A stretch of DNA of 64,000 nucleotides, from positions 26,096-90,095 of IMG/VR virus record IMGVR_UViG_3300034200_001099; one strand, 5' to 3'. A model generated the notes under the pieces. It ran no database searches, was not told the DNA's origin, and was given only the letters and a program-made list of their open reading frames with translations. Positions within the stretch are counted from its first letter, which is position 1; every line of letters begins with the position of its first letter. This document shows positions 2,949 through 54,389 of this stretch, piece by piece. The stretch is from a virus. A program made the translations under genes and the position numbers.

Positions 2949-3678
2949 TAAAGAAATTCTCAACAGTATTGATAGTTTTTGTAAACTCAATAATATTGAT
3001 GATGTTGATAGTTTTATTAAAAACGTTTTTCAAGAAGGGTTTAACATAAAGAAGTATGGTCTTTTGGAAAAAACACTTAATGAAGGTGAAAAACACTTAA
3101 AACCAAGTGTGATTGAAGAAAAACGAGTGGAAATTGAGGTAATCCGAGAAATACGGGTGGAAATACCGGTTGAAGTTATTAGAGAGGTTGAAAAAATAGT
3201 TGAGGTTATTAAAGAAGTGCCTGTTGAAAAAGTGGTTATACAAGAGGTAATTAAGGAGGTTCCTGTTGATAGAGTGGTTGAGAAAATAATTTATACTACT
3301 GACGATATTCAAATAAACGAACTTGGCGGAAAAATTGCCGAGTTGGAAGAAGAAAGACAAATATTTTCCACTAAAATTGCCGATTTGGAAGAAGAAAGAC
3401 AAATATTTTCCACTAAAACTGAAGAAATGGAAAATAATTTCCAAAATGAAATATCTAAAAAGGATAAAGAGTTAGGTGATCTTAGACAAAAATTAGATGA
3501 CCCTGTGACAAATGATAAAATAAAACTCCTCCAAGAAACGCTCCAAAACTTGAGAGGTGAACTACAACAAAAGAACGAACAAATAAGGGAGATAGAAAAA
3601 ATAAACCGAGACCTTTTGAATGGTAATCAAAATCAAGCATACCTTCTGAGGGGATCAAATTTAAATAAAAGAGTATGA
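2920..3678 (+). CDS. EVPVE-repeat coiled-coil protein
   Basis: Val/Glu-rich EVIKEVPVEKV repeats followed by coiled coil. Confidence 0.7.
   Translation: MEPNYSKIFNKEILNSIDSFCKLNNIDDVDSFIKNVFQEGFNIKKYGLLEKTLNEGEKHLKPSVIEEKRVEIEVIREIRVEIPVEVIREVEKIVEVIKEVPVEKVVIQEVIKEVPVDRVVEKIIYTTDDIQINELGGKIAELEEERQIFSTKIADLEEERQIFSTKTEEMENNFQNEISKKDKELGDLRQKLDDPVTNDKIKLLQETLQNLRGELQQKNEQIREIEKINRDLLNGNQNQAYLLRGSNLNKRV
3331..3414 (+). repeat. 42-nt tandem duplication (KIAE/DLEEERQIFST x2)
   Basis: Two near-identical 42-mers at 3331 and 3373 (1 mismatch). Confidence 0.9.
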
Positions 3679-10418: not shown

Positions 10419-11660
10419 ATGAAAGAAAAATTTTTGCCTTGGTTTTTATTGTTTTGCGCTCTTGGGTTGTCAGGAACTGCCGCGTATTATAGTGTTGTTG
10501 GTTTATCAATAGTATTTGTTGGTGTAGCGTTACCCGTTATTATTATGGGATCATTTCTTGAGATATCTAAAATTGCGATTGCAACATACCTTCACGATAA
10601 ATGGAAAGAGACATATGGAATTTTAAAGATTTATATGTCCATTGCCCTTGTTACTCTTTCTTTAATAACTTCACTTGGAATATATGGACTTCTAAGCACG
10701 GGATTTCAAGGTAATATTGCAAAACTTGAAATCAACGAAAAAAGAATTAAAAATGTTGAAGTAAAAAAGAAAAGGTTTGAAGAAGTTAAAAACGAACTAA
10801 CAAAAGAAAAAAACACTTTAGACGGAGACATTACTAAGTTAAGAGACGGGGTATCTAATAACACAACAACACAATCTGTAGATAGAAAAACCGGACAGGT
10901 AATTACAAGAGCCAACGACGGTAATAGAAAATTATTTGAATCTCAACTATTACAAGCACAAGTAAGAAGAGACACAATAGCAAAAAGAATTGATAATATG
11001 AATGACAGTATTACTAATCTTGATATTGAAATTTTAAATATGGAATCAAAAGAAATTTCGGGAAGTGAGTTGGGAGCTTTAAAGTATGTTAGCGAACTAC
11101 TTGATTGGGATATTAAACGAACCGCAAATCTTTTTATTTTAATTCTAATATTTGTATTTGACCCATTGGCAATAACATTAGTAATTGCCACAAATCAGGC
11201 TTTTAAAGGTAAAAGAAAAAAAGAAGATGATGTTAAACCTGAATATGAGAAACACCCATTCCAAGACGAAGTTGAGATTCCTGAAAGTTATTTAACGCAT
11301 CATACCATACATGATACCATACATGATACCATACATGACGCCATACAAGTAGAAGCTGAAATTATTGAAAGAATTGTTGAGGTTCCTGTTGAAGTAATAA
11401 GAGAGGTTGAAAGAATTGTTGAGGTTCCCGTTGAGGTAATTAGAGAAGTTCCTGTTGAGGTAATTAGAGAAGTTCCTGTTGATAGAATTATAGAAATAAT
11501 TAGAGAAATACCGGTAGAAACTACTATTGAAGTTCCCTTTAAATATTACATAAATGATTTGGGACAAGTTTTTGATGAAGAAGGTATTGAGATGGAAAAT
11601 CTTTTATTCAATAAAAAAATTGAAGAAATTGAAAGAAAAATTTTAAAATACAAAAAGTAA
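10419..11660 (+). CDS. multi-pass membrane coiled-coil protein with EVPVE repeats
   Basis: N-terminal TM helices, coiled coil, IFVFDPLAI, HDTI and EVPVEVIR repeats. Confidence 0.75.
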   Translation: MKEKFLPWFLLFCALGLSGTAAYYSVVGLSIVFVGVALPVIIMGSFLEISKIAIATYLHDKWKETYGILKIYMSIALVTLSLITSLGIYGLLSTGFQGNIAKLEINEKRIKNVEVKKKRFEEVKNELTKEKNTLDGDITKLRDGVSNNTTTQSVDRKTGQVITRANDGNRKLFESQLLQAQVRRDTIAKRIDNMNDSITNLDIEILNMESKEISGSELGALKYVSELLDWDIKRTANLFILILIFVFDPLAITLVIATNQAFKGKRKKEDDVKPEYEKHPFQDEVEIPESYLTHHTIHDTIHDTIHDAIQVEAEIIERIVEVPVEVIREVERIVEVPVEVIREVPVEVIREVPVDRIIEIIREIPVETTIEVPFKYYINDLGQVFDEEGIEMENLLFNKKIEEIERKILKYKK

Positions 11661-14533: not shown

Positions 14534-16078
14534 ATGAATAAAGAGCAATATATCAGATCAAGATTTAAAGATTTACTTAACGAAACTTTAGAGGAAAGAG
14601 CGAATGACATTAAAAAGAATTTTTCTAAAGAAGTTAGGCTTAACCCCAAAAATAAATTTGACTACATAGAAGAAGGCAAAAGTATGTGCGAATCATGTGG
14701 TGGAATGATGTCGGAAGGTAAATGTAACGAGGGGTGTAATCTAGAAGAAAATAAAAGTATGTGCGAATCATGTGGTGGAGAAATAAACGAAGGTGAAGCA
14801 TGTGAAGAATGTGGAAGTATGTATAAGGGAGACATTAGAGAACTTGGTGGTATGGATGACGGACACCCAAGATTTGGAAAAGAAAACTTTAACCAAATGA
14901 CTAAAGATCAAGTTGAAAGACTTCTTAGAGGTGATGATGAAGAAGATGAAGATGAATACGATGATTTTGAATTTGAAACTCCTGTGAGAGATGCAATCAG
15001 ATCTCATAAAGGTAGGTTCGAAACTCCTGTTAGAGATGTAATCAGATCTCGCGGAAATAGATATAGAGATCTTGAAGATGACATGAGCGAAGGTGTTAAT
15101 TTTGAAATAGATGAAAAACTATATGGTAATCAAAGTAGAATAGACAAAAACAAGAACAACAGAATTGATAGTGAAGATTTCAAAATGTTAAGAAAACAAC
15201 AAGATGAAGAACAACTTTATGAAATTGATTTTGAAAAAGAAGAAAACACTGAAGGTAATGCTTTTACAGGGGCTTTGTCTAACGCTAAAAAACAAAACAA
15301 AGATGAATTTGAAGTTGACGGTAAAAAATTTAAGGTTAAAGAATCAATACTATATACTGAATCTGATTTACTTGATCTTATTGAAAATTTAGTGATTGAA
15401 GAAAAGAATACATTTAAAAAATCAGAACCAAAAGGATATAAAGAATACGAAAGAGTGCATAATGCAGATAAAAAAGAAAATGATAATTATCTAAAAAGCG
15501 TTGCTAAAAAAATGACTGATTATTTAAAAGGATCGTCAGATTCAGGATCTAAGTATGAAATGAAAGAAACCAAAAAATTTCCAACTGAAAATGGTGGAAT
15601 GAAAAAAGGAATTAGAAAAAAATATACACCATCAGATGCTGTTGACGAATATATTGACGCTTTTTCTTATCCAGGACAAACTAACTTGGTTTATGATGAA
15701 ATCAAACCTAATGATGAAAAAATTAAAGGTCAATTAGTTGGAAGTAGTACTAACGGAAACGCACAAGTTGATAAAGACGGTAACGCTTTAGGTAATGTTG
15801 TACCAAGTAAAGTTGGGGAGAAATTCTATAATAATTTCAAAGATAACTTATATGGTCAAGAACAGATGAATGCGTCTTATAAAAGACAACCACAACCTAT
15901 TGATCAAGCTGGTGAAGAAACTGAAAGAGGAACACTTAAGTCTAAAAAAGGTAAAAAAACATCTCAAAGTATTTTAAACAAGTTGGAAGAAAGTAAAAAC
16001 ATTAAACAGGAAACTCAATTAAATGAAGAGTTTGGTAGAATGCAAGAGTTAATGGGATATAGTAGAAAAACCCAATAA
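14534..16078 (+). CDS. mosaic acidic protein (CxxC repeats, EF-hand-like loop), possible head-associated protein
   Basis: CESCGG x2, CEECG, DKNKNNRIDSEDF, many (I/L/M)xE sites; TATTTAT at 14511. Confidence 0.7.
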   Translation: MNKEQYIRSRFKDLLNETLEERANDIKKNFSKEVRLNPKNKFDYIEEGKSMCESCGGMMSEGKCNEGCNLEENKSMCESCGGEINEGEACEECGSMYKGDIRELGGMDDGHPRFGKENFNQMTKDQVERLLRGDDEEDEDEYDDFEFETPVRDAIRSHKGRFETPVRDVIRSRGNRYRDLEDDMSEGVNFEIDEKLYGNQSRIDKNKNNRIDSEDFKMLRKQQDEEQLYEIDFEKEENTEGNAFTGALSNAKKQNKDEFEVDGKKFKVKESILYTESDLLDLIENLVIEEKNTFKKSEPKGYKEYERVHNADKKENDNYLKSVAKKMTDYLKGSSDSGSKYEMKETKKFPTENGGMKKGIRKKYTPSDAVDEYIDAFSYPGQTNLVYDEIKPNDEKIKGQLVGSSTNGNAQVDKDGNALGNVVPSKVGEKFYNNFKDNLYGQEQMNASYKRQPQPIDQAGEETERGTLKSKKGKKTSQSILNKLEESKNIKQETQLNEEFGRMQELMGYSRKTQ

Positions 16079-24617: not shown

Positions 24618-25018
24618 AAATAATAATATCTGAACAACAATATGTAATGTTATCTGAGTCAAAATTAGATCCAATGCAAAATCTTATTAACATGGCTTTT
24701 GATGAGGTAAAAGAAAATTGTGATCGAGGTTTTTATATAAGGTCACACCACAATTACATATGTGACCCAATAGAAATGATTGAAGAAATAAAGGTGGTAG
24801 ATGTATCAAAAACAACGTCTATGGGTTACCTTGAAAAAAAAGAATTATCTCAAATGCACATTACCGTTGATATTCATCTTGAATCTATATATTTATTTTA
24901 CGATTTAGATAATTTTATTTATCAGTTACAGGGGGAAGCAAGAAACATATTAGGTGGAAGTATTGTATCTATATCAATAGGAGAAGTAATCAATATAAGA
25001 AAAGAATTTAACTGGTGA
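24614..25018 (+). CDS. leader-tagged hypothetical protein
   Basis: MKIIISEQQYVMLSES. Confidence 0.7.
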   Translation: MKIIISEQQYVMLSESKLDPMQNLINMAFDEVKENCDRGFYIRSHHNYICDPIEMIEEIKVVDVSKTTSMGYLEKKELSQMHITVDIHLESIYLFYDLDNFIYQLQGEARNILGGSIVSISIGEVINIRKEFNW

Positions 25019-25593
25019 TGAAAATTATATTAACTGAAGATCAATATAAGAATCTTTTTGAATCCAATTTTGAAAAAAACAAAAGGTTGGTGGGAAAAAT
25101 GTGGGATGAAGGTATGAACTTGGGTGAGATGTCATCGTTGATTGGTTTAGATGAATCTCAAATAATATTACTTCTTAAAGATAAAAATATAAAAATTGAT
25201 TGTAAATTTGCTGAGGATTTAGTCCTAACTCTTATGTATAGAACTGATTTTATTAATAAAAATTATAATTTCAACAATGGTCAAATGTTTCTAAACTTAA
25301 ATTGGGGAGGTTCTAGTGGGTCTGTAGCATTTGAGTTTAATGATAAGGAATATAAGTTAACAGGATGGGCAACACCTTATTGGGGTGGTGATTGTGAAAC
25401 TCCTGTTGAGGGTAATTATTTTGAAAATAAAAAAACAGATGAATATGTTAATGAATACGGGAATTCAGATAAAAAAATAGAATACACACCATCAAGTTTT
25501 AACTCAATACAGGAACTTATTGATTTTTTAAATAACGATTACCCTAAACAATTAATCAAACCAATAAAAGAATTGATTGAAGGTTATATTTAA
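25018..25593 (+). CDS. leader-tagged hypothetical protein
   Basis: MKIILTEDQYKNLFES. Confidence 0.7.
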   Translation: MKIILTEDQYKNLFESNFEKNKRLVGKMWDEGMNLGEMSSLIGLDESQIILLLKDKNIKIDCKFAEDLVLTLMYRTDFINKNYNFNNGQMFLNLNWGGSSGSVAFEFNDKEYKLTGWATPYWGGDCETPVEGNYFENKKTDEYVNEYGNSDKKIEYTPSSFNSIQELIDFLNNDYPKQLIKPIKELIEGYI

Positions 25594-25598
25594 AATAT

Positions 25599-25895
25599 AT
25601 GAAAATTATAATAACTGAAGACCAAGTGGCGTTAATAAGAAGGTTAAGTGAGTTAGAAGAAATTCTTGATAAAATTATTAAGGTATTAAATGATGATATA
25701 AACGATAGTGGTCCGGGTTATAAACCTGATAATTTTGGTGTTTATGAAAGGTGGGTGATGGATAGAGTCAAAAGAGAGTTTAAAAATGATAATCCAAAGA
25801 TTGAATTTCCAAATCACGATTTTATGATGTTAATGTCGGGACAATTTAACAATAAAATTAGAAAAGGTTTTAATAAAGTTAAAAAGAGAAGATGA
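25599..25895 (+). CDS. leader-tagged hypothetical protein
   Basis: MKIIITEDQ. Confidence 0.7.
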   Translation: MKIIITEDQVALIRRLSELEEILDKIIKVLNDDINDSGPGYKPDNFGVYERWVMDRVKREFKNDNPKIEFPNHDFMMLMSGQFNNKIRKGFNKVKKRR

Positions 25896-33108: not shown

Positions 33109-33264
33109 TTATCTTCTATAATATTTGTTGATGATTTTTTTCACATTCTCTTGAACATTTGAACCATTTGATGGTTGTTGAGGTTGTGCTTGAGGTTGTG
33201 CTTGAGGCTGTGCTTGAGGTTGTTGAGCCTGTTGATTAGCTTTGTTTTTACATCCGCAACTCAT
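33109..33264 (-). CDS. small MSCGCK / QAQP-repeat protein (51 aa, not in ORF track)
   Basis: MSCGCKNKANQQAQQPQAQPQAQPQAQPQQPSNG...KYYRR; 12-nt tandem repeat; upstream TATTTAT, downstream hairpin. Confidence 0.65.
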   Translation of the reverse strand: MSCGCKNKANQQAQQPQAQPQAQPQAQPQQPSNGSNVQENVKKIINKYYRR

Positions 33265-42059: not shown

Positions 42060-42115
42060 ATTTTTAATATAGTAAAATTATGGTAAATAAAAATATTTTT
42101 TATTATATTTGTAAT

Positions 42116-42505
42116 ATGGAAAAAATGATATATCTAGTTAGAGGAATACCAGGAAGTGGCAAGACAACTTTTGCAAAACAATTAACACGAAATGTGTTTG
42201 AGGCAGACCATTATTTTTATGATAATGACGATAACTACAATTTTATTGCATCTGAAATAAAAGAGGCACATAAAGAGTGTCAACAATATGTTGGATATGC
42301 GATGGAGTCAAACACACCAAAAATTGCAGTATCAAACACATTTACACAAGAGTGGGAACTCCAACCTTATTATGAGTTAGCAATTAAGTATGGTTATTAT
42401 GTGACCTCTATTATTGTGGAAAATAGACACGGAGGAACAAACAAACATGGAGTTCTAGAAGATAAGATTCAATTAATGAAAGATAGGTTTGAGTTTAAAA
42501 TATAA
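42116..42505 (+). CDS. AAA_33 / polynucleotide-kinase-like P-loop kinase
   Basis: LVRGIPGSGKTT, EADHYF, VSNTF; start ATG 42116, 4 nt after TATATTTG. Confidence 0.85.
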   Translation: MEKMIYLVRGIPGSGKTTFAKQLTRNVFEADHYFYDNDDNYNFIASEIKEAHKECQQYVGYAMESNTPKIAVSNTFTQEWELQPYYELAIKYGYYVTSIIVENRHGGTNKHGVLEDKIQLMKDRFEFKI

Positions 42506-42508
42506 GAA

Positions 42509-43162
42509 ATGAAATTTGATAAAATATTAACTAGTGGGGTTGTTTGGATTACTTCGGACACCCACTATTCGCACAAAAACATATGTCGTGGAGTTACGGT
42601 TTGGAGAACCATAGATGGTGATATTCCAATTGATGCGACCAGAGATTTTCCTAATTTGGATGTAATGAATAGTGTTATTGTTGATAACATTAATGAGAAG
42701 GTTGGCCCTGATGATACTTTAATTCACTTGGGTGACGTGGCTTTTGGTGGTGTTGAAAAGATAGGACAATTTTTGGATCGTTTGGTTTGTAAAAACGTTC
42801 ACCTTGTTTTGGGTAATCACGATCAGAACATAAAAAAAAATAGAGAGAACACCAAAGATAAATTTTTATCTATTCAAAACTACTTGGAGGTTAATATTGG
42901 TGGTGTTGATTTTGTGTTATCGCATTATCCATTATCAAGTTGGAACCAACTAAATAAAGGTTCTATTCACCTTCATGGGCACGTACACCTACCAAGAAAT
43001 AAAAGATTTGGTAAAGGTAAAAAAATGGATGTTGGTATGGATGGTAATAATCTTTATCCATATAGTATAAGTGAGATCGTTCATATGATGGATAAACGAT
43101 GTGTTGAGTCAGAGATGAATGGAGATCACCACTTAGATGTTATTATTGATCTTGTGGGTTAA
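42509..43162 (+). CDS. calcineurin-like metallophosphoesterase
   Basis: SDTHY, HLGDV, GNHD, SHYP, HGHVH, DVGMD. Confidence 0.88.
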   Translation: MKFDKILTSGVVWITSDTHYSHKNICRGVTVWRTIDGDIPIDATRDFPNLDVMNSVIVDNINEKVGPDDTLIHLGDVAFGGVEKIGQFLDRLVCKNVHLVLGNHDQNIKKNRENTKDKFLSIQNYLEVNIGGVDFVLSHYPLSSWNQLNKGSIHLHGHVHLPRNKRFGKGKKMDVGMDGNNLYPYSISEIVHMMDKRCVESEMNGDHHLDVIIDLVG

Positions 43163-44436: not shown

Positions 44437-44594
44437 TAAACTAAAATCATAGTTTGCTCAATACGAGGATTTATTAACCACTAATCCCAATTGTATTCGT
44501 ATTTATTAGTGAACTCAACCTGCCCGTGGAATATGGGGGTTTCTTAAAAAGATTCTTCAAGAGAGTAAATAATTTTATTTTATTTATTTTTACT

Positions 44595-46463
44595 ATGAAG
44601 AATATATTGGTTGGACTTTTTGTCCTATTTTCATCTTTCTTATTTTCTCAATCATGTTCACATACCATACAACGAACCGACACTTGGGGCGATGGTTGGA
44701 ACGGAGGAACTGTGGCCGTTTCCGTTAATGGAGTAACCGTTTTATCTAATTTAAGTTGCGCCGGATATGGACCTACTTCTTCTACATTTTCTGCAGCAGT
44801 GGGGGCAACAATACGAGTGTACCGCACGGCATCAGGATCATATCCTTCTGAAATGCGTATACGAGTTATCAATGGAGCAGGATCTACCATAATCAATACC
44901 GTTCAACCACTTGCTGGAACCTCAACTTCAGGAGGTCATATAGTGGCGGGAAGTTGTGCATCAGTATCACCGGGACCTTGTACTAATACCTATTCGTATT
45001 TAACGGCTACAATGCCATCAACTCCCGGTTTTTTTTCAGTTGGAACATGCACTTTTCAAGGGGATTACAATACATTTAATAGTGTTGTTGCAGGTAGACA
45101 ATACAGATCAACTTATAGTTTAGGTGGTTGGATAACAGTAAGACACACAACACCAGGAGGAACTGTGGTTACTTCAGGACCTTCTCCACTAACATGGACC
45201 GCTACTATATCAGGGACTTATTACGTTCATTACAATACAAATTCAAGTTGTGGAACTGCTTCTTCTTGTGGGACAGATTATATTGAATGTTTAACTTGTA
45301 CTGCACCACCACCCCCATCAAATGATTTAGTGTGTAATTCAACATCTATTACTTGTGGTCAGTCAATATCAGGGACTACTGTAAACGCAACTAACTCTGG
45401 AACGGGTGAAGGTGGATTTTGTTCTGTTAGTCAAACACAACCCGGTGTTTGGTATGTTATTCCAGGAAACGGACAAATTATGACGGCAAATCTTTGTGCT
45501 ACCGCATGGGATAGTAAAATGTCTGTATTTTCAGGGGTAGGGTGCGGAAGTCTAACTTGTGTAGGGGGTAATGATGATTTTGGTCCTGCTTGTGGTAGTT
45601 CATCAGCCTCATATTCATGGTCTTCTGTGGTTGGAACAAATTACTATATATTAGTTCATGGGTATAGTACAAGTAGTAGTTTTTCTATTAATGTAAATTG
45701 TGTTGCCCCTCCAACACCAGGCCCATGCATTAATACTATTTCGTATGGAACACAAAGTTTACCTGTATTTGGTGGAATATCATACACTACCGTACCTTGT
45801 CAGTTTGCTGGTGAATACTCAACTTGGAGTGGAGCCGTGGTAGGAACACCATATATTGCTATGACTACGGTTGCAACTGATTGGATAACAGTAAGAAGTG
45901 GAGCATATAATGGAACTGTTGTTGCTGTTGGATTAGGACCATTATCCTTTACTCCGACAAACAATAATACCTTATACATACACGTTAATACAAACTCACT
46001 ATGTGGAACAGTAAGTGTATGTAGAGATGTTTCTGTAACTAGAATGTCTGCATTACCTATTGAATTGTTATCGTTTGAAGGTAAGAAACAAGTTAACTCA
46101 AATATGTTATATTGGTCAACAGCGTCTGAACATAATAGTAGTCACTTTATTATTGAAAAGAGTGTGGATGGTTTTAAATGGAGTGATATTGGACAAGTAC
46201 AATCTGCTGGTAACTCAACTCAAAAAATAGATTATAGTTTAGAAGATAAAGATGTATCTCAAGTTATCAACTACTACAGATTACATCAATACGATATAGA
46301 TGGTGTGGATGAGGTATTTGGACCAATAGCGATCAACAATAGAGATAGAATAAACATCATTGCTAAGAGAATTAATTTAGCGGGTCAAGAGGTTAATGAG
46401 AATGCAACCGGAATAATTATAGAAATTTATGAGGACGGAAGTATAAAAAGAATTATAAGGTAA
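44595..46463 (+). CDS. Flavobacteriia-type secreted Cys/Ser/Thr-rich protein with T9SS-like C-terminus
   Basis: Signal peptide from ATG 44595; DTWGDGWNGG; duplicated PGPC...WITVR module; LPIELLSFEG...NYYRL.Q.D.DG; NLAGQEV...IYEDG. Confidence 0.75.
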   Translation: MKNILVGLFVLFSSFLFSQSCSHTIQRTDTWGDGWNGGTVAVSVNGVTVLSNLSCAGYGPTSSTFSAAVGATIRVYRTASGSYPSEMRIRVINGAGSTIINTVQPLAGTSTSGGHIVAGSCASVSPGPCTNTYSYLTATMPSTPGFFSVGTCTFQGDYNTFNSVVAGRQYRSTYSLGGWITVRHTTPGGTVVTSGPSPLTWTATISGTYYVHYNTNSSCGTASSCGTDYIECLTCTAPPPPSNDLVCNSTSITCGQSISGTTVNATNSGTGEGGFCSVSQTQPGVWYVIPGNGQIMTANLCATAWDSKMSVFSGVGCGSLTCVGGNDDFGPACGSSSASYSWSSVVGTNYYILVHGYSTSSSFSINVNCVAPPTPGPCINTISYGTQSLPVFGGISYTTVPCQFAGEYSTWSGAVVGTPYIAMTTVATDWITVRSGAYNGTVVAVGLGPLSFTPTNNNTLYIHVNTNSLCGTVSVCRDVSVTRMSALPIELLSFEGKKQVNSNMLYWSTASEHNSSHFIIEKSVDGFKWSDIGQVQSAGNSTQKIDYSLEDKDVSQVINYYRLHQYDIDGVDEVFGPIAINNRDRINIIAKRINLAGQEVNENATGIIIEIYEDGSIKRIIR

Positions 46464-46908: not shown

Positions 46909-47130
46909 ATGAAAGAAAGAGAAGTAATTTACGGAGTGTGTGATAAGACTGGATCTTGTGATTCCTACTTTGGGTTTTTCAAAAATGAAAAAGATGCTGA
47001 ACACGAGGTTGAAGTTCAAGCTAATAGACTCAAGGAAGACTTGGGTATGATGGATATTGACATTCAAACGGACCGAGCATTATTCGATGGTAAATTAGTA
47101 ATAGTAATTCATTCATATGTGTTAAGATGA
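46909..47130 (+). CDS. hypothetical protein
   Basis: ORF. Confidence 0.65.
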   Translation: MKEREVIYGVCDKTGSCDSYFGFFKNEKDAEHEVEVQANRLKEDLGMMDIDIQTDRALFDGKLVIVIHSYVLR

Positions 47131-47813
47131 TAAACCCAACAGGAAAAAAATTAGAAAAAATTATCTTTAAATTGTTTGACGATGCAAGTCAAGGGGTTGA
47201 TAGATATAATCATAACGATAGTTTGTGGTTAATCTTTACCAATGAGATGAAATGGGTTGTTGAATACACTAAAGACCAAACTCTATGGTATAACTATAAC
47301 TTCTTTAAAGATGAGATGGAGTTAATTGGTTTGGATTGTGTTGAAGATAAAGACCTTATTCAAAAATGGTTTGAGTCAAGATTTTTGGGAATGCCAAAGG
47401 TTGAAGAGGCTTTTGACCCATTTTTCGATCAAGACCAATATGTTGAAGACGTTATTCAAAATGGAGTGAAAGATATCTCTAGTGTATTATATAAAGAGTT
47501 ACTCAGCGTTGAAGACACCATTCAAAATGGGGTGAAACACACCGAGGAGGGATTGAGGCCTGATGACTCTGACGTTGAAGACACCATTCAAAATGGGGTG
47601 AAACTTACCAAAAGTACAATAATGAGTCAAGATTCTAAAATTGAAAACACCATTCAAAATGGGGTGAAAGAGACTATTGGCACACTACGGCGTACTGCTA
47701 AGTGGGGTGTTGATGACATCATCCAAAATGGTGTAAAAGAAACTCATGACGATTGTTCAAATAACATTGCAAGAGTTGAAGGTATAGTTAGAATAGGTGA
47801 AAAATTAAATTAA
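47127..47813 (+). CDS. protein with C-terminal VEDTIQNGVK repeat / variable-spacer array
   Basis: Six 22-23 aa units. Confidence 0.8.
   Translation: MINPTGKKLEKIIFKLFDDASQGVDRYNHNDSLWLIFTNEMKWVVEYTKDQTLWYNYNFFKDEMELIGLDCVEDKDLIQKWFESRFLGMPKVEEAFDPFFDQDQYVEDVIQNGVKDISSVLYKELLSVEDTIQNGVKHTEEGLRPDDSDVEDTIQNGVKLTKSTIMSQDSKIENTIQNGVKETIGTLRRTAKWGVDDIIQNGVKETHDDCSNNIARVEGIVRIGEKLN
47442..47804 (+). repeat. CRISPR-like in-frame array: 30-nt repeat GTTGAAGACACCATTCAAAATGGGGTGAAA with 36-39-nt unique spacers
   Basis: Repeat starts at 47442, 47508, 47574, 47640, 47709, 47775; copies 2 and 3 identical, outer copies degenerate. Confidence 0.9.
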
Positions 47814-48892: not shown

Positions 48893-49303
48893 ATGACAAA
48901 AGTAAAAATCTATCTAGATGATGTTCGTACACCGGTAGATCCAAGTTGGGTGGTTGTTCGTTCTTATGATGAATTTGTTAGTAAGATAAATGAAATTGGT
49001 TTAGAGAACATTGAACTAATTTCATTGGATCACGATTTGGGTGATAGTGCAATGAGAGAATGGCACTACGGCGTTGTAAAAAACTACACCATCAATTACG
49101 ATAATATAACAGAAAAAACTGGTATGGATTGCACCAAGTGGTTAGTGAATCAATGGTTAGATGGTAAACATATTGTTGAAGTTGTGGTTCATTCAGCAAA
49201 TGCGGTGGGTAGTGGAAACATGATGGGTTACATCAACAATTACCGACACTTGAATAGAATGGAACAAAATTGTGTAAGAGTTAAAATTGAACATACAGTA
49301 TAA
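48893..49303 (+). CDS. cyclic-phosphate-processing receiver-domain protein
   Basis: YLDDVRTP, ISLDHDLG, TGMDCTKWL, VHSAN. Confidence 0.8.
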   Translation: MTKVKIYLDDVRTPVDPSWVVVRSYDEFVSKINEIGLENIELISLDHDLGDSAMREWHYGVVKNYTINYDNITEKTGMDCTKWLVNQWLDGKHIVEVVVHSANAVGSGNMMGYINNYRHLNRMEQNCVRVKIEHTV

Positions 49304-49313
49304 AAATAAAATT

Positions 49314-49574
49314 ATGGAATTAGAAAAATTTGAACAAGCAAAAAAAGTTAAAGAAAACCTTGAAAGGTTAAAAACACGGAAACATAAATTGGAATCCGCA
49401 CTTAAATCTTGTAGTTTGGCGGTTAAGATTAATTATACGTATGGAGGTAAATTCCGAACGCCAGGTGAAGTGGGATTATATGATAAAGAGATTATAAAAG
49501 AAATGATGATCAAAGAACTTGAAAAGTTGGATGAAGAAATAAATTTAGTTAAAGAAGAATTTGAAAAAGTATAA
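49314..49574 (+). CDS. hypothetical protein
   Basis: ORF, likely start MELEKF. Confidence 0.6.
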   Translation: MELEKFEQAKKVKENLERLKTRKHKLESALKSCSLAVKINYTYGGKFRTPGEVGLYDKEIIKEMMIKELEKLDEEINLVKEEFEKV

Positions 49575-49577
49575 GAA

Positions 49578-50711
49578 ATGGAAAATTTAAATAGTGTATG
49601 TTATGTTGGTGCAATCGGAGAGGTTAAGCCAATAGAAGGGGCAGATAACATAGAACTTGTTATGGTTAATGGTTGGAATGCCATAACTAAAAAAGGAGAA
49701 TATAAAGTTGATGATTTGGTTGTTGTTGCGACCACCGATGCGGTTATACCTGTTGAGTTATCCGACTTAATTGGTGTAACTGGTTACTTAAGAAAGGGTC
49801 AGAGAGTTAGAACTGTTAAACTTCGTGGAGTTTACTCAGAGTGTTTAATCATATCTTTAAAATATACATTTAAATCAGAAATATCTATCAATGGTTTTGT
49901 TGATGGACAAGATATGATGGGTTTACTTAATGTCACTAAATACGAACCACCAGTTAAAATGGTCCAGTTAAGTGGGGGTAGAAAATTCAAATACCACCAA
50001 AACCCTAACTTCCATGTTTACTACAAGTTTCCCAACTTAAAGAATGTACCTGAAATGTTTAACGAGGAAGACATAGTTACTTTTACTCGTAAACTTCACG
50101 GAACAAATGCTCGTTATGGTATCGTTAAAAAGAAAAGATTATCCTTGTGGGATTATGTAAGAAAGTTATTTGGAAACAAATGGGCTAACTACGAATATGT
50201 TTATGGATCTCACAACGTAGAGAAAGGTTCTGACTCTCAAGGGTTTTACAAATCAGATGTATGGAAAACAATCGCAGATAATTACAAAATAAAAGATAAA
50301 CTATGGGATTATGTTAAGACATATGGTAGTCCTGACTATTTGGGTGATGGGTTAATCATCTATGGTGAGATATATGGTCATGGTATACAAAAAAATTATG
50401 ATTATGGTTTAACTGATGTTAAATTTGCTGGTTTTGATGTTGAGTTAAATGGTAATTACCGACCTTATTACGATGAAAAGAACGTTTTCAAATCTTTGGG
50501 ATTACAAAGAGTTGAGGTTCTTTATTTGGGGACTTGGTCTAAAGAAAAACAAGATAAATACGTATTCAATAACAATATAGAGGGAACCAAAGTTCCACAC
50601 GAAGGTGTTGTTGTTAAATCTGTTACTGGTGATAGACACAAAGTAGGTAAAGTGATCAACCCTGATTATAGTATATTCTGTGAAAAAAATAATGTAGGTG
50701 ACTCCCATTGA
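49578..50711 (+). CDS. RNA ligase, DRB0094 family
   Basis: PIEGADNIE N-domain; KLHGTN, IYGEIYG, FDV, EGVV, KVINPDY. Confidence 0.88.
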   Translation: MENLNSVCYVGAIGEVKPIEGADNIELVMVNGWNAITKKGEYKVDDLVVVATTDAVIPVELSDLIGVTGYLRKGQRVRTVKLRGVYSECLIISLKYTFKSEISINGFVDGQDMMGLLNVTKYEPPVKMVQLSGGRKFKYHQNPNFHVYYKFPNLKNVPEMFNEEDIVTFTRKLHGTNARYGIVKKKRLSLWDYVRKLFGNKWANYEYVYGSHNVEKGSDSQGFYKSDVWKTIADNYKIKDKLWDYVKTYGSPDYLGDGLIIYGEIYGHGIQKNYDYGLTDVKFAGFDVELNGNYRPYYDEKNVFKSLGLQRVEVLYLGTWSKEKQDKYVFNNNIEGTKVPHEGVVVKSVTGDRHKVGKVINPDYSIFCEKNNVGDSH

Positions 50712-50768
50712 TGGAGTCACTTTTATTACTTACTATTAAATTAAAAAAAATTAATACGTATTAAGATA

Positions 50769-50969
50769 ATGGAAAATAAAAAAAACACCCCTAAATTAAT
50801 TTTAAACTCTGAAGAACATGAACTTATTGGGTTTTATATATCCGAACTTGGATTTTTAATGATGTCAATATGTTCACAATCAGGTAAACGAACTAACTAT
50901 AACTTGGGTGAACACAACACAGAACAAAATGTTTTTATAGATCTAATTAAAAAACTTAACTATAAATAA
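50769..50969 (+). CDS. hypothetical protein
   Basis: ORF. Confidence 0.55.
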   Translation: MENKKNTPKLILNSEEHELIGFYISELGFLMMSICSQSGKRTNYNLGEHNTEQNVFIDLIKKLNYK

Positions 50970-51011
50970 ATTGAATTGATTAGTTCACTTTTTTAATTAC
51001 ATTTAAATAAA

Positions 51012-51206
51012 ATGAAACAAGATTTAAACAAATTTGCATTCTTTTCAAAAAACTTTTTGTGGTATTCCATAATGTTAGTGATTGAGAATGATTATAATCC
51101 ACTTAATTGGTGGTTATTTAGTGGGTTTTTCCCTATAGTAATTACCATATTTTTTGAATTATATATACTTGGAACATCATTAAACGAAACAGAAACAGAA
51201 ACATAA
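51012..51206 (+). CDS. small membrane protein
   Basis: Hydrophobic segments. Confidence 0.55.
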   Translation: MKQDLNKFAFFSKNFLWYSIMLVIENDYNPLNWWLFSGFFPIVITIFFELYILGTSLNETETET

Positions 51207-51226
51207 AATTAAAAAAATATTATACA

Positions 51227-52210
51227 ATGAGAGAAAACGAAATTGATGATTATATTGAAGAGTTAAAAATGATTGAAGAAATGGATAATATAGAAATGAC
51301 AAGAAATAGATTTATTAAAAACGATGACACAAAGACACCAACTAATTCACCAACATGTTGGGGAACTTTACAAGACGAAGAATTTGCCCCCGCATTTACA
51401 TCCGTCCCAAAAGTTCCGGCTGGAATTTATGAAATCATTTACAATAGACAATTAAATTGTAACACAATAAAAAAACAACCATTTAAAACAGATGAGTTAT
51501 ACCAATTACCTTCATATGAGATCCAAGATATCCTCAAGGATATCCAAAATTTTTGGGATCGTCGTGACAAATATAGAGAATATAATTTTGTTCATAAGCG
51601 TGGGATTCTAATGTATGGTGAACCAGGATGTGGTAAGTCAGGAATCATACAGTTAATTTCAAAACAACTAATTGAAAATGATGGGATTATTCTAAACATT
51701 AAAGATCATGACGATGTTGAATACTTTATTGATTTCATTGCAACATTTAGAAAAATTGAAACCAACAGACCTTTAATTGTTTTGTTGGAAGATATTGATT
51801 CAATTGCCGGCGAAAATAATCATGCGACAAGTAAGTTATTAAACATTCTTGACGGTGTGAAACAAATTGAAGACGTTGTTTATATTGCAACAACAAACTA
51901 TCCTGAGAAACTACAAGACCGTATCACAAACAGACCATCTCGTTTTGATAGACGATACAAAGTGGAACTTCCAAACGAAGAGATTAGAAACGCTTATATC
52001 CGTCACAAATTAACAGAAGATGATTTGAAAAATGTTAATATTGATGAATGGGTAAAAAGAACTGAAGGAATGTCTCTTTCACACTTGAAAGAAGTTGTAA
52101 TTTCAACTATAGTTATGGGAAGAGAATTTGAGGAAGTGATGGATAACCTCGAAGGATTAAAAAAAGCACCAACAATTAAAGAATTTAAAAAAGTAGGATT
52201 TGGAAAATGA
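51227..52210 (+). CDS. AAA+ ATPase
   Basis: YGEPGCGKS, LLEDID, ATTNYPE, RPSRFD. Confidence 0.9.
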   Translation: MRENEIDDYIEELKMIEEMDNIEMTRNRFIKNDDTKTPTNSPTCWGTLQDEEFAPAFTSVPKVPAGIYEIIYNRQLNCNTIKKQPFKTDELYQLPSYEIQDILKDIQNFWDRRDKYREYNFVHKRGILMYGEPGCGKSGIIQLISKQLIENDGIILNIKDHDDVEYFIDFIATFRKIETNRPLIVLLEDIDSIAGENNHATSKLLNILDGVKQIEDVVYIATTNYPEKLQDRITNRPSRFDRRYKVELPNEEIRNAYIRHKLTEDDLKNVNIDEWVKRTEGMSLSHLKEVVISTIVMGREFEEVMDNLEGLKKAPTIKEFKKVGFGK

Positions 52211-52359
52211 AAAAAGGAATTTATTATATACCGTTATTTTTAATATTATTATTTATAATGGTCTGGACATTTTATGTTAGTAATTATTTAGGGTTTGTAA
52301 TGTCGACAATATCAATGTTATTATTAGGTGAAGTTTATTATTTAAGATTTATAAAATAA
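52207..52359 (+). CDS. small membrane protein (50 aa, not in ORF track)
   Basis: MKKGIYYIPLFLILLF...; ATGA coupling. Confidence 0.5.
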   Translation: MKKGIYYIPLFLILLFIMVWTFYVSNYLGFVMSTISMLLLGEVYYLRFIK

Positions 52360-52371
52360 TTTATAAAAATT

Positions 52372-52398
52372 TCCCCATCTCAAAAAGGTGGGGTTTTA
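52372..52398 (+). terminator. intrinsic terminator
   Basis: CCCCATCT-N-AGGTGGGG plus T-tract. Confidence 0.7.
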
Positions 52399-52410
52399 TA
52401 TTTATAGAAT

Positions 52411-52929
52411 ATGAAAACATTAATAGAAAGAATTGTCAGAGAATATCTTTTGGAGGAAAGAAAATTTCCTAAACAAAAAGGTAGTGAAGTCTATGATAAA
52501 ATGTTATATAATATAATATCCACATACCATCAGTGGTTTGATCGACATGGGGATAATTCGTATAAGGAAAATATTGATTTGTTTTATGAAAAAAATAATT
52601 CAGATAACGATTATAGGATTGGTGTTAGTGATAAGTTATTGATACCGATAATTAAAAAAGATATTGGTAAGATTATTGATAGCTTTAAAACGCACAATCC
52701 TTGTAATAAAAGAATCATATTTACAAAAAGAATGGTTAATAATGAAGATGAGGAATACTTTGATGTTATTGAATTTCTCATACAAAAAGATAGTAATGAA
52801 TTAAAAATTGTTAGTTCTGCTTTTTCTGATGACGGTAACTTTTTATATTTTGGTGTTAGACCAAGAAGTAAAAAAGAAAATTTAAAAGAAAATTCATGTA
52901 AAAGTGGGGATATAGTTGTGGAATTGTAA
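52411..52929 (+). CDS. leader-tagged protein, possible BECR-fold ribonuclease
   Basis: Leader ...YLLEE; HQWFDRHG and terminal strands IIFTKR..IEFLIQ..LKIVSSAF. Confidence 0.5.
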   Translation: MKTLIERIVREYLLEERKFPKQKGSEVYDKMLYNIISTYHQWFDRHGDNSYKENIDLFYEKNNSDNDYRIGVSDKLLIPIIKKDIGKIIDSFKTHNPCNKRIIFTKRMVNNEDEEYFDVIEFLIQKDSNELKIVSSAFSDDGNFLYFGVRPRSKKENLKENSCKSGDIVVEL

Positions 52930-52949
52930 AAAAGTATTATCTTTGTAAG

Positions 52950-53080
52950 ACAATTGATTGTTATTGGTTCAATCATTAAAAAATACCAATCGTAGGGTGT
53001 CTGGCGTAATCCGACACAGGTTGAAAATCCCACCCCTAGGTGAAATTGATCCCCACTGAAATATGTGGGGATTTTTTTTT
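52950..53080 (+). ncRNA. candidate structured RNA with its own TATCTTTG promoter and terminator
   Basis: Promoter 52938-52945; TGATTG/CAATCA stem with ATTGGT/ACCAAT pseudoknot; GTGTC/GACAC stem; ATCCCCAC/GTGGGGAT plus T9; no ORF. Confidence 0.55.
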
Positions 53081-53139
53081 AAGAGACCCCATCTTAATTG
53101 ATGGGCTTTAGGGCCGTTATCCGTTAGGGTAACGATTTA

Positions 53140-53171
53140 AAGGGGGGAATTCGCTACTCCCCCTTTTTTTT
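53140..53171 (+). terminator. intrinsic terminator-like hairpin
   Basis: GGGGGA-N-TCCCCC plus T-tract. Confidence 0.65.
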
Positions 53172-53194
53172 ATTTAACTAAGTATTTATCATAT

Positions 53195-53641
53195 ATGAAA
53201 ATAATAATTTCAGAACGTCAACAAAAGTTAATTAAAGAAAATTCTGTTAAGGGATCTTTAATTGATATGATTAAAGAAGATGGTTGGAAAAGTGTTTACG
53301 GATTGGTTGGGGGGATTGATAATCTTAAAAAACTTGTTGGAATTGAATCACCAATAGATTTTCTTAATTTATTTAATGATTTGGATGTTATTAATAGTGA
53401 AGAAAAACCTAATTTGACTTTATTTAGATATGAAATAGGAAATAATCTAATGGTTTACGATGATGAATTTGATTTTGTTTACATCAATTATAGTATAATT
53501 TGGTCATTTTTAGAAAAAGTTTTTGGATTTAACTACTCTGAAATACAGGAAGTCACACAGGAATGGTTGTCTGAGGCCTACGATTTAAGGGGAGTCACAA
53601 CAGATGAGGTAGATGAGGAGGATGATGAGTTGGTTGGATGA
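53195..53641 (+). CDS. leader-tagged protein, probable distant paralog of 47127 domain
   Basis: MKIIISERQQKLIKE; YINY...G...E....QEW motif. Confidence 0.7.
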   Translation: MKIIISERQQKLIKENSVKGSLIDMIKEDGWKSVYGLVGGIDNLKKLVGIESPIDFLNLFNDLDVINSEEKPNLTLFRYEIGNNLMVYDDEFDFVYINYSIIWSFLEKVFGFNYSEIQEVTQEWLSEAYDLRGVTTDEVDEEDDELVG

Positions 53642-53660
53642 GGTCTACAATTTAAGGGGA
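53564..53660 (+). repeat. 30-nt direct repeat separated by 37-nt spacer
   Basis: TGGTTGTCTGAGGCCTACGATTTAAGGGGA / TGGTTGGATGAGGTCTACAATTTAAGGGGA (26/30). Confidence 0.85.
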
Positions 53661-53789
53661 ATTATATAATTCCCTTTTTTTATTTAATTCTTTTACTTAT
53701 CTTTGTGTTATGTTAATTATGACCATATTGTTTATTCTTTTAATCCTATGTATTGGGGTTTGGGGTAAACACGGAAAACACTTTAAGTG

Positions 53790-54389
53790 ATGAAAATAAT
53801 ACTACTTGATAATGATGGTGTGATTTGTTTATCCAATAATTGGGGTGGACGAGCAAAGAAATGGGCAAATTTTCATAAGGATAATCCTGATGTTGAATTT
53901 ACAAATCGTCCTATTGATTGTAGGTTTGATAACTTTGATGAGAAGGCAATTAAGGTCCTTAATGAAATACTTGAAGAAACCGGTGCTGAAATAGTTGTAA
54001 GTTCAGATTGGAGATACAATGCAACACTTGAGGAACTTGGCGATTACTACATAAGTCAAGGAATCATCAAACGACCAATTGCAGTAACGGATATGTTCAA
54101 AGACATATTCCCAAGAGAATGGAATGCGTTTAGGTTTCGTGCTGATTTAGAAATAGAACGAAGTATGGAGATCGGACACTGGTTAGAGAACCATCCCGAA
54201 GTTACGCATTGGGTTGCAATTGATGACCTCAACATGAGTATTGAGTTTTTATCTAAAAACTTTTCACATAGTAAAGATGATGATAAAAACCCCGGTCTAT
54301 CTAATTTTGTTCTAACACCAAAAGCAAGTGAGGGAATCAAACAAAGTGGTATTAAAGAAAAAATATTAAAGTTTTTGAAAGATGAGTAG
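53790..54389 (+). CDS. HAD domain protein (Swiss-army-knife RNA repair type)
   Basis: LDNDGV, IVVSSDWR, WVAIDD. Confidence 0.82.
   Translation: MKIILLDNDGVICLSNNWGGRAKKWANFHKDNPDVEFTNRPIDCRFDNFDEKAIKVLNEILEETGAEIVVSSDWRYNATLEELGDYYISQGIIKRPIAVTDMFKDIFPREWNAFRFRADLEIERSMEIGHWLENHPEVTHWVAIDDLNMSIEFLSKNFSHSKDDDKNPGLSNFVLTPKASEGIKQSGIKEKILKFLKDE

Follow-up and report, generated by a model that had tools for sequence, protein, structure and literature searches.

The window analysed here, a 64,000-nt stretch of viral DNA, contains a gene whose 3' part is a repeat-spacer array of CRISPR-like geometry read in frame as protein. We favour, with moderate confidence, the interpretation that this array is of CRISPR origin, has been domesticated as a modular protein and is reshuffled by recombination. 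The array occupies the 3' ~half to two-thirds of ORF 47127-47813 and holds no stop (Table 1). The carrier is a ~300-kb lake jumbo phage, likely with Flavobacterium as its host; the 90,095-bp record that includes the window is 31% complete. A word-indexed search returned 2433 relatives of the encoded protein (E ≤ 0.01), with lengths stepping by ~22 aa, and the gene (family A) occurs once in each of 5 near-complete related phage genomes of ~300 kb. Family-A arrays comprise ~3 to ~30 units, and comparison among homologs revealed that unit content differs between strains. Eighteen DNA sequencing runs from lake water contained at least 0.90 of the sampled words, and six RNA-library runs contained 0.06–0.25. 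In two RNA-library and two DNA runs, all represented by contigs, assembly broke at the repeats, with many different continuations within single lake samples; the RNA-library contigs cover part of the gene with neither strand nor ends visible and do not prove its transcription. Searches of Pfam, PHROGs, NCBIfam, PADLOC and the PDB yielded nothing significant for the array protein. A Dodecin match (34.5 bits, on the 632-aa protein of the relative L026) was discarded as a short motif summed over 22 repeats, no single stretch of which passes, and tblastn against phage records gave only weak tape-measure matches (21–27% identity, E 8e-5 to 9e-3), which we treated as low-complexity or repeat noise.

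The first-pass annotation described six 30-nt repeats separated by 36-39-nt spacers. The periodic array stands, with different boundaries: the true unit is a 36-nt repeat (12 codons, VEDTIQNGVK + x + T/I) followed by a 30-33-nt spacer, and the sixth copy is degenerate. Successive repeat starts lie 66, 66, 66 and 69 nt apart. Identity of the five clear repeats to the reference copy is 76–100%; copies 2 and 3 agree with each other over 31-32 nt and are the two that continue to GAAAC, as had been remarked. Across the family, 185/235 distinct spacers (79%) are exactly 30 nt long, departures from this length come only in steps of 3, and 696 of the 1241 cassettes (translated spacers) in 162 family proteins measure exactly 10 aa. 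Repeat cores were detected by a custom regular expression that misses strongly decayed copies; Tandem Repeats Finder makes no call for the array. At ≤3 mismatches the 90,095-bp record has 3 copies of the 30-nt repeat and 0 of the reversed control; it contains no second 66-nt-periodic array.

Table 1. Features of the array-bearing gene (positions in the window) and of the sister array in genome G408 (positions in contig L114).
Feature	Position	Strand	Remarks
Whole gene	47127..47813	+	228 aa; N-terminal domain and translated repeat-spacer array (ORF list)
N-terminal domain, ~83 aa	47127..47375	+	conserved; alignments A1 and A2
Linker	47376..47441	+	decayed repeat-like pieces (SRFLGMPK, VEEAFDPFFDQDQY); weak direct repeats D2 and D4
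Repeat 1 (VEDVIQNGVKDI)	47442..47477	+	78% identical to reference copy
Spacer 1, 30 nt (SSVLYKELLS)	47478..47507	+	cassette type in 27/1241 sampled cassettes
Repeat 2, canonical (VEDTIQNGVKHT)	47508..47543	+	24/36 to Flavobacterium type VI-B repeats, offset 0
Spacer 2, 30 nt (EEGLRPDDSD)	47544..47573	+	53% G+C
Repeat 3, canonical (VEDTIQNGVKLT)	47574..47609	+	
Spacer 3, 30 nt (KSTIMSQDSK)	47610..47639	+	
Repeat 4 (IENTIQNGVKET)	47640..47675	+	84% identical to reference copy
Spacer 4, 33 nt (IGTLRRTAKWG)	47676..47708	+	52% G+C
Repeat 5 (VDDIIQNGVKET)	47709..47744	+	76% identical; several synonymous changes
Spacer 5, 30 nt (HDDCSNNIAR)	47745..47774	+	terminal cassette in 109/162 arrays
Degenerate terminal repeat (VEGIVRIGEKLN) and stop codon	47775..47813	+	
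Family-B array, genome G408	L114:4084-4563	minus	repeat VEEHYKMEVTxT; G408 also carries the family-A gene

That the array is read in frame without a stop, as first annotated, holds for the whole family. None of the 235 distinct spacers, all taken from units of 20-24 aa, has a stop in the frame that is read, whereas 31–69% are stop-free in the other five frames, and 42 distinct family genes, up to 811 aa, remain open. Spacer GC1/GC2/GC3 is 0.47/0.40/0.28 versus 0.35/0.32/0.31 for random stop-free 30-mers, and pN/pS is 0.36 for repeats and 0.32 among homologous cassettes, whose clusters were defined by ≥60% amino-acid identity, which biases pN downwards. Some cassettes, such as EDGDWLDGDER and HDDVYHHKGR, are kept across distant lineages, the latter varying at synonymous sites only; variants of the spacer 4 cassette differ by both synonymous and replacement changes. 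Cassettes are polar, Arg/Ser/His/Gln-rich 10-mers, and their composition depends on position in the array (chi-square p = 1e-5). These data show that the array is read in a single frame, each unit giving VEDTIQNGVKxT plus a 10-residue cassette; codon periodicity and pN/pS below 1 are also compatible with a history played out at the protein level alone. The spacers are also mutually unrelated, as had been claimed: any two of the 203 cassette types are about as similar as column shuffles, except for 20 pairs identical at ≥5/10 positions. Amino-acid composition was tried as a test of cassette origin and rejected as uninformative, because cassettes lie no closer to the phage proteome than to the host proteome or to random six-frame translation (KL 0.086–0.105).

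The N-terminal domain was found in 380 representative clusters, always at residues ~1-75, with D25, Y27, W34, W43, TLWYNY, W81 and E83 invariant. It has no match in Pfam, PHROG or PDB (the last by profile search). The ESM Atlas offers a poor model of it (pLDDT 0.49), whose structural neighbours (TM 0.38–0.55) were set aside as not meaningful. In distant relatives the first repeat follows directly after W-VE, group C proteins reading ...ITKW-VEDTIINGVK. Conserved neighbours of the family-A gene are small unknown ORFs and an RNA-repair gene set, and the neighbour conservation analysis identified no enzyme partner, peptidase or modifying enzyme. The ORF ending at 467, 287 aa at full length, had been labelled a Cas4-like nuclease; it matches no Pfam, NCBIfam or PADLOC family, so the label is not supported. 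No Cas1, Cas4 or reverse transcriptase family was found in the 90-kb record (31% complete); Cas1, whose lack was first remarked for the window, was not found in 5/5 near-complete relatives either. A diversity-generating retroelement was rejected: the 90-kb record has no RVT_1 family, and spacers differ wholesale, not at adenines. Iterons or a replication origin can lie within a gene, as in lambda ori; here this reading was dropped, since copy number varies from 3 to 30 and distant relatives conserve the motif at the protein level.

The repeat is related to genuine CRISPR repeats of the likely host genus. It agrees with Flavobacterium type VI-B repeats (loci L080 and L083) at 24/36 positions, gapless and at offset 0, a value reached by 0/20000 shuffles (maximum 21), the pattern that fetched these loci having been designed to fit both sequences. 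Constraint on the repeat extends to its synonymous sites. The rare codons ACC, GGG and GTG are used at their repeat positions in 90%, 65% and 67% of cases versus 12% each genome-wide, an excess that recurs in three lineages so diverged that, in their N-terminal domains, only 56% of codons agree at identical residues (28 of 33 genes with the 57-aa block found; 42 distinct genes overall). Copies appear to age along the array: among arrays with ≥5 detected cores, rare-codon use falls from 0.83 in the 5' fifth to 0.38 in the 3' fifth, and repeat cores become less like the canonical sequence, mean identity dropping from 0.92 to 0.69, lowest at the last position. Private cassettes show the same polarity (19% at the first position, 0–4% near the 3' end) in the 109/162 arrays (84 distinct) that end in the common terminal cassette. 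The apparent growing end is the 5' one. Two arrays, L020 and L026, share 14 cassettes in almost collinear order; what sets them apart is the 5' end and a number of internal gaps. The earlier argument against ordinary tandem duplication, which would copy spacers too, is borne out: whole-unit duplication is nearly absent, only one of 134 distinct arrays carrying a cassette type twice.

One relative (P0012) equals the window protein minus one unit, and window repeat 1 looks like a recombination product, since its two ends match different repeats (1 and 2) of another relative, P0003. Across arrays, the same cassettes recur in different orders and combinations. On these sequence comparisons, the difference between the window and its nearest relatives is explained by recombination inside repeats, not by insertion. 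The inserting mechanism put forward in the first-pass annotation is not supported by the differences of this array; it gains support in the phage group through a sister array, described below.

No DNA source was found in the sampled genomes for ~85 family-A spacers, including all five of the window, for none of which an external match could be recovered. The exact 30-mer of spacer 2 had 0 matches in the genome contigs searched and occurs in IMG/VR and JGI metagenomes inside homologous arrays only; a 23-mer of spacer 4 was found in IMG/VR in one homologous array only. Against 401 Flavobacteriaceae genomes, the window's 5 spacers gave 10 weak matches, none spacer-bounded. Nothing spacer-bounded was obtained for the 22 spacers of L026 (401 genomes), ~12 of L010 (401 Flavobacterium genomes) or ~20 of L013 (381 Flavobacterium genomes), the 2 best candidates per genome being scored in these ~400-genome searches. 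The family-A array of phage genome G408 had no match in the 5 best host genomes, 0/235 spacers matched any other place in two complete phage genomes, in the 90-kb record or in the flanks, and three 5'-most private spacers were found in IMG/VR in their own contigs only.

The search that fails for family A succeeds for a second translated array in G408 (family B), where it finds sources for 2/3 spacers. One is 31/31 identical to a Flavobacterium genome, and a second matches Flavobacterium chromosomal DNA at 28/28 positions; matches fall in 88/381 genomes, the 31/31 spacer making up nearly all among the matches listed. Because this sister array carries host-identical spacers, an inserting mechanism exists in this phage group. 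Like family A, family B has a small N-terminal domain ending in W-VE, then 36+30-nt units read in frame, with unit number varying in 22-aa steps, and related family-B proteins differ by units adjoining the gene. The repeats of the two families are identical at 23/36 positions at offset 0 (0/20000 shuffles reach 23/36) and have the 8-mer CAAAATGG in common, although it is read in different frames. Family B is short (up to ~6 units, versus up to ~30 in family A), and it has spacers identical to Flavobacterium chromosomal DNA, whereas those of family A have no detectable source. Homology between the two N-terminal domains is not supported (hhalign E 0.021, probability 2%).

We propose that the array originated from a type VI-B-style CRISPR array and was assembled in the same way. 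Its 66-nt units (22 codons) are frame-neutral and would have been added at the gene-proximal end, each addition duplicating a canonical repeat and bringing in a new 30-nt piece; a Cas1-Cas2-type integrase working in trans presumably did this. In F. columnare, according to the accessible text of Hoikkala et al. 2021 (PMC8092290), the type II-C Cas1-Cas2 supplies type VI-B arrays with spacers in trans, and these come about evenly from phage and host. The cassettes of the present array would be old, maintained as peptide by purifying selection and devoid of a recognisable DNA source, and variation today would arise mainly by homologous recombination between repeats, causing unit loss, exchange and reshuffling between co-infecting phages. 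The variable 10-mers between constant modules would most likely act as a binding or decoy surface during infection. It is possible, and we suggest it only tentatively, that a CRISPR-type integrase, probably host Cas1-Cas2 in trans, still writes 30-nt captures beside the first repeat; since the 66-nt unit is frame-neutral, a capture would become a heritable 10-residue cassette. In that case the host-spacer-bearing sister arrays would be the fresh stage of a natural process that writes protein, and family A its selected product of long standing.

Alternatively, the gene would encode an ordinary protein of modular repeats, in which a structural unit of 22 residues, made up of the constant motif and a variable loop, evolved at the protein level and changed in number by unequal crossing-over and phage exchange, with the CRISPR likeness due to convergence or chance. 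We consider this rather unlikely. It accommodates the open frame in all members, codon periodicity and pN/pS of 0.32–0.36, the cassettes conserved across distant lineages, and the deletion and chimeric repeats that account for the window's nearest variants, and it would require neither a spacer source, nor cas genes, nor a repeat with direct-repeat fold, none of which was found. Yet a duplicated cassette is present in 1/134 arrays only, despite unit numbers of ~3 to ~30, and cassette types are no more alike than shuffles, both of which tell against it. Rare synonymous codons kept across diverged lineages and decaying 5' to 3', the 24/36 in-register match to CRISPR repeats of the host genus, a sister array whose 23/36-similar repeat borders host-identical spacers, and an 8-mer shared in a different frame per family are likewise at odds with a history confined to protein. 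A further candidate is a multi-core precursor of peptides, RiPP-like or a polyprotein, whose constant motif would serve for recognition or cleavage and whose 10-mers would be released or modified. Hypervariable short peptides between constant motifs, after a conserved N-terminal 'leader' domain, would suit it, and cyanobactin and graspetide precursors would offer an analogy. We regard this reading as extremely unlikely, given that the ATP-grasp family is absent from the 90-kb record and that conserved neighbours include no peptidase or modifying enzyme; it also leaves the nucleotide-level conservation of the repeat and its CRISPR likeness unexplained.

A dual-use array, whose sense strand codes for protein while one strand, most likely the antisense, gives repeat-spacer RNAs that host Cas13b binds as guides or as decoys in the manner of RNA anti-CRISPRs, seems to us very unlikely, even though the minus-strand repeat resembles the crRNA-sense type VI-B repeat at 18-19 of the last 21 nt (position-by-position reading), synonymous sites of the repeat are constrained and the RNA-repair gene set flanks the gene. 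Precedents for its parts are described in the available text of two studies, which report phage RNA anti-CRISPRs that mimic repeats (PMC10651486) and Cas-less compact arrays as common in huge phages (PMC7162821). The predicted RNA tells against it. The dyad symmetry first annotated is present as CCATT/AATGG, but the repeat folds no better than its shuffles on either strand (z −0.19 to +0.91). Phage repeats fold at −3.2 to −6.8 kcal/mol, without a terminal GUUG/CAAC stem or the stable VI-B hairpin, compared with −10.9 and −9.8 kcal/mol (z −2.5 and −3.05) for the repeats of F. columnare and F. sp. J27. An RNA hairpin with covariation was rejected, as joint third-position counts (12-24: CG 234, TT 44, CA 30, AT 27 and others) show no clean compensation; they fit ageing of copies, not compensatory change. 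Rfam at E ≤ 10 returned only a chance snoRNA match, outside the array, and the spacers match nothing able to serve as a target in the genomes and records searched. The domesticated, CRISPR-derived protein array remains the reading that we prefer.

If that reading is correct, a repeat-spacer array turned coding would open a way to new proteins: captured or array-borne short DNA becomes peptide cassettes that are then selected and recombined. It would tie CRISPR adaptation to phage protein evolution, let the sister arrays serve as a natural record of hosts, and might point to a natural template for tools that write cassettes. The conservative reading as a modular protein also leaves a large undescribed family (380 clusters at 50% identity, 2433 relatives), and the absent duplicate units, frozen rare codons and 5'-to-3' ageing call for explanation. 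Neither this family nor such a route was found in the literature searched.

The type VI-B arrays of Flavobacterium (F. columnare, F. covae and F. sp. J27; loci L080, L088 and L083) are among the closest known systems. They have the same 36-nt repeat, 29-31-nt spacers and 66-nt period, 18-19 of the first 21 nt of the repeat are identical, and both kinds of array have a degenerate terminal repeat and unique spacers, share spacers collinearly and show novelty at one end, with Cas1 and Cas2 absent from the locus. Unlike them, the phage array lies inside an ORF and is translated, shows no cas13b or leader-like flank, and has a repeat without the CAAC end or closed hairpin. When its repeat is oriented as it resembles type VI-B repeats, its variable, apparently growing end is on the side opposite to the leader and cas13b of real arrays, its spacer lengths vary in 3s only, and its protospacers were not found in sampled genomes. 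The compact arrays of huge phages (Al-Shayeb et al. 2020), as presented in the accessible part of that paper (PMC7162821), are often Cas-less, with a median of six repeats; they resemble the present array in being short, carried by jumbo phages and without acquisition genes, and, like the sister array, they include spacers that match the host chromosome, whereas they are described there as non-coding guide arrays, none of them as translated or fused to a gene. Racrs (Camara-Wilpert et al. 2023) are likewise phage sequences that resemble a host CRISPR repeat without cas genes; according to the available text (PMC10651486) they are non-coding small RNAs that keep the repeat structure, in contrast to the coding sequence, weak predicted fold and long-lived spacers found here. 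'False CRISPRs', tandem repeats of protein-coding genes that are picked up by CRISPR finders in the portion of Zhang and Ye 2017 at hand (PMC5294841), share the repeat-spacer pattern in an ORF and the lack of cas genes. Ordinary coding tandem repeats, finally, have alignable 'spacers' and duplicated units, whereas the array described here combines unrelated spacers and a near-absence of duplicates with likeness to a genuine host repeat.

The window array exists and is translated, and it differs greatly from an ordinary coding repeat. It lies in a 228-residue gene that opens with a conserved domain, and its source record (an IMG/VR virus of 90,095 bp, judged 31% complete) contains no other 66-nt-periodic array; the window takes up bases 26096-90095 of that record. 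Related phage genomes reach 272-318 kb (91-100% complete), and the array gene is single-copy in all five near-complete ones. The spacing given by the first-pass annotation (66, 66, 66, 69 and 66 nt) was correct, but the conserved block spans 36 rather than 30 nt (VEDTIQNGVK, any residue, then T/I), leaving spacers of 30, 30, 30, 33 and 30 nt instead of 36-39 nt. Among relatives of the gene (family A), 185 of 235 distinct spacers with DNA are 30 nt long, and the encoded peptide, here called a cassette, has exactly 10 residues in 696 of 1241 cases (162 proteins).

Features of the array gene, its surroundings and the sister array (window coordinates unless another locus is named)
Feature	Position	Strand	Description
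299-aa ORF	L155:301-1200 (record ~24800-25699), upstream of window		DnaG-type primase catalytic-core motif, PF08275, E 4.6e-07
RNA-repair-type set	42080-43162 and 48893-54389		flanks array gene
645-aa ORF	44526-46463		hydrophobic N-terminus; Cys/Gly/Thr/Ser-rich internal duplications
Array gene	47127..47813	+	228 aa; N-terminal domain, linker, repeats
N-terminal domain of array gene			conserved, ~83 aa
Linker of array gene			short; decayed repeat-like pieces
Window repeats	starts 47442, 47508, 47574, 47640, 47709	+	five copies
Degenerate sixth repeat	47775	+	ends array
Sister array (phage G408)	L114:4084-4563	-	159 aa; repeat VEEHYKMEVTxT, 36+30 nt, translated

The family is large: a word-indexed search (E<=0.01) returned 2433 relatives, whose lengths step by ~22 aa, and a profile of the N-terminal domain recovered 380 clusters at 50% identity. 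In every one of them this domain comes first, ahead of 20-540 further residues, and the repeat, essentially confined to the array gene, is present in 122 of the 150 clusters listed. All 42 distinct genes from 70 IMG/VR loci, encoding up to 811 aa, are open. The read frame is stop-free in 235/235 distinct spacers, against 31-69% for the other five frames, and GC1/GC2/GC3 of the spacers is 0.47/0.40/0.28, compared with 0.35/0.32/0.31 and 0.34/0.30/0.30 for random stop-free 30-mers of host and phage DNA. Homologous cassettes have a pN/pS of 0.32 (biased downwards, as clusters were defined by amino acid identity) versus 0.17 for the N-terminal domain, and variants of the cassette HDDVYHHKGR differ at synonymous sites only. 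Hydrophobic residues are enriched at cassette position 5 and basic residues at positions 1 and 7 (chi-square p = 1e-5). Given the open frame, codon periodicity, pN/pS and positional bias, the array encodes protein, and it is as peptides that the cassettes are important.

Family-A arrays span ~3 to ~30 units of repeat plus spacer, and just one of 134 distinct arrays (1041 units in all) has any cassette type twice, which bears out the earlier argument that tandem duplication would have copied the spacers. The spacers were also rightly called mutually unrelated, the likeness among 203 ten-residue cassette types being no higher than in column shuffles. Synonymous sites of the repeat are conserved: 90% of copies use ACC for Thr, 65% use GGG for Gly and 67% use GTG for the second Val, against 12% for each codon genome-wide. 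Three lineages show this preference, and at identical residues their N-terminal domains agree in only 56% of codons. From the 5' to the 3' fifth of arrays, canonical rare codons for the same residue drop from 0.83 to 0.38, and along the array the repeat core declines from 0.92 to 0.69 in identity to the canonical repeat. In the 109 arrays ending in the common terminal cassette, to which this count is restricted, 19% of cassettes at the first position are private, as against 0-4% close to the 3' end. Two related loci (L020 and L026) have 14 nearly collinear cassettes in common and are set apart by their 5' ends and by gaps within the array. Such features are typical of CRISPR arrays, which copy a canonical repeat at one end, take in unique inserts and are degenerate at the other. 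Elsewhere in the window, coding tandem repeats at 11298-11496 (units of 12, 24 and 42 nt), 14667-14797 (a duplicated Cys-x-x-Cys block), 33178-33223 (12-nt units) and 3331-3414 (a 42-nt duplicate) are ordinary head-to-tail repeats in which the full unit is copied, unlike the window array.

Unit number differs among close relatives: protein P0012 equals the window protein minus unit 2, and P0003 has one additional 5' unit. The first window repeat (VEDV...DI) joins the start of P0003 repeat 1 to the end of its repeat 2, a chimera that crossover inside repeats would leave. The same cassettes recur in differing orders and combinations across arrays, and in single lake samples contigs end at the repeat, with many different sequences after it; depth there is ~tenfold that of the flanks in DNA runs. 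Recombination between repeats is thus demonstrably changing the window array today. In sequencing runs X18, X19 and X20, a variant replaces the linker and first unit (47383-47508) with 16 other letters; it occurs in contigs of two RNA libraries and one DNA run, whose contig joins at 47574, and matches the SRFLNINS-VEDTIQNGVK form of P0051, P0056 and L010.

Searches for spacer sources sampled genomes, scored the best two candidates per genome and used the sister array of G408, a complete phage genome of 308,574 bp that also carries a family-A gene, as a control at the same settings. The control was positive in 88 of 381 Flavobacterium genomes; external matches, a check proposed in the first-pass annotation, were absent for the window spacers searched. 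The second spacer (S2) had no exact 30-mer in species genomes and, in IMG/VR and JGI metagenomes, occurred only within homologous arrays, as did a 23-mer of S4 in IMG/VR. The whole array gave 10 weak matches in 401 Flavobacteriaceae genomes, none spacer-bounded; eight of them, on inspection, proved to be chance resemblances within ordinary genes. Nothing spacer-bounded was found for 22 spacers of L026 (401 genomes), ~12 of L010 (401 Flavobacterium genomes; S2 and S4 are among these spacers, as are relatives of S3 and S5) or ~20 of L013 (381 Flavobacterium genomes), nor did G408's own family-A array match in the five genomes best matching its sister array. Beyond the arrays themselves, two complete phage genomes, the 90-kb record and the sequence flanking the 70 loci contained no match to any of the 235 spacers, and three 5'-most private spacers were found in IMG/VR in their own contigs only.

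Nearly all listed sister-array matches come from a single spacer (31/31 in one genome, 30/31 in at least eight). This spacer falls within a conserved Fe-S-type gene and the phage reads it antisense; a second spacer matches another Flavobacterium genome at 28/28. These matches point to Flavobacterium as the likely host genus. The sister repeat agrees with the window repeat at 23/36 positions at offset 0 (0/20000 shuffles), and CAAAATGG is common to both but in a different reading frame. Relatives of the sister protein (227 by word-indexed search) step in length by 22 aa and differ by units adjoining the gene.

Cas1, Cas4 and RT families were sought without success in the 90-kb record, and Cas1 also in five near-complete relatives, extending the earlier statement that no cas1 is in the window; the ORF then described as Cas4-like (1-467) has no family found. 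The 299-aa primase-motif ORF immediately precedes the ORF running into the window start. The flanking RNA-repair-type set comprises an AAA_33 kinase-like ORF, Metallophos, cREC_REC (a cyclic-phosphate processing receiver), an RNA ligase with a PHA02142 OB domain, an AAA ATPase and HAD_SAK_2, and 14 of 42 distinct loci have a cREC_REC-like ORF downstream of the array gene. Such a set might mend RNA that Cas13-type or anticodon nucleases have cut. The 645-aa ORF has no Pfam or NCBIfam family; its C-terminal part may resemble Bacteroidota secretion-sorting domains.

The best-supported account, which we consider somewhat probable, is that a CRISPR-type array became fused to a small phage gene. Such an array would have grown from one end, each added unit being a repeat plus an insert, and would have been domesticated as a modular protein; selection on its peptides would now maintain it and recombination reshuffle it. 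In the boldest reading, which we consider less likely than not, a CRISPR integrase would still write cassettes into the gene. A purely protein-level origin, which would account for the coding signals and the missing spacer sources, does not explain why synonymous sites are frozen and age, why duplicates are lacking or why the repeat resembles those of CRISPR, and we regard it as rather unlikely. A guide or decoy RNA role is considered improbable. The literature searched yielded no description of translated CRISPR-type arrays.

Comparison with Bacteroidota CRISPR repeats, proposed in the first-pass annotation, used the F. columnare Cas13b repeat (excerpt of PMC5395568). A 21-letter pattern built to fit both this and the phage repeat matched 20 stretches in species-representative genomes. 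Three are genuine arrays, in F. columnare, F. covae and Flavobacterium sp. J27 (14, 10 and 13 matches, respectively, spaced 65-67 nt, with two extra gaps of 182-184 nt in J27); the other 17 are single hits, mostly within ordinary genes. Five of the Bacteroidota loci (L079, L087, L081, L085 and L082) have single 21-nt matches in ordinary genes encoding V(E/G)DTIQN..., taken for chance although two pairs are orthologous genes. The Pfam Dodecin model scored 34.5 bits on L026 (cut-off 22.5) and 22.2 bits, just too low, on L059. No single stretch passes; the L026 score arises solely from adding up many repeats of a short motif like (S/V)ED.I.N(A/G)V, a trap for automatic annotation. The canonical window repeat aligns without gaps at offset 0 to the Flavobacterium Cas13b-type repeats at 24/36 positions (shuffle maximum 21, 0/20000 exceeding it). 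Two features argue against placing the phage array with these. The Flavobacterium type VI-B repeats form a closed hairpin (-10.9 and -9.8 kcal/mol, z -2.5 and -3.05), whereas computed folding gives the phage repeat no such hairpin on either strand. In matching orientation, the degenerate repeat stands at the left of the real arrays, with the leader and a 1244-aa ORF, presumably cas13b (excerpt of PMC8092290), at the right; the apparent growing end of the phage arrays lies on the side opposite that leader.
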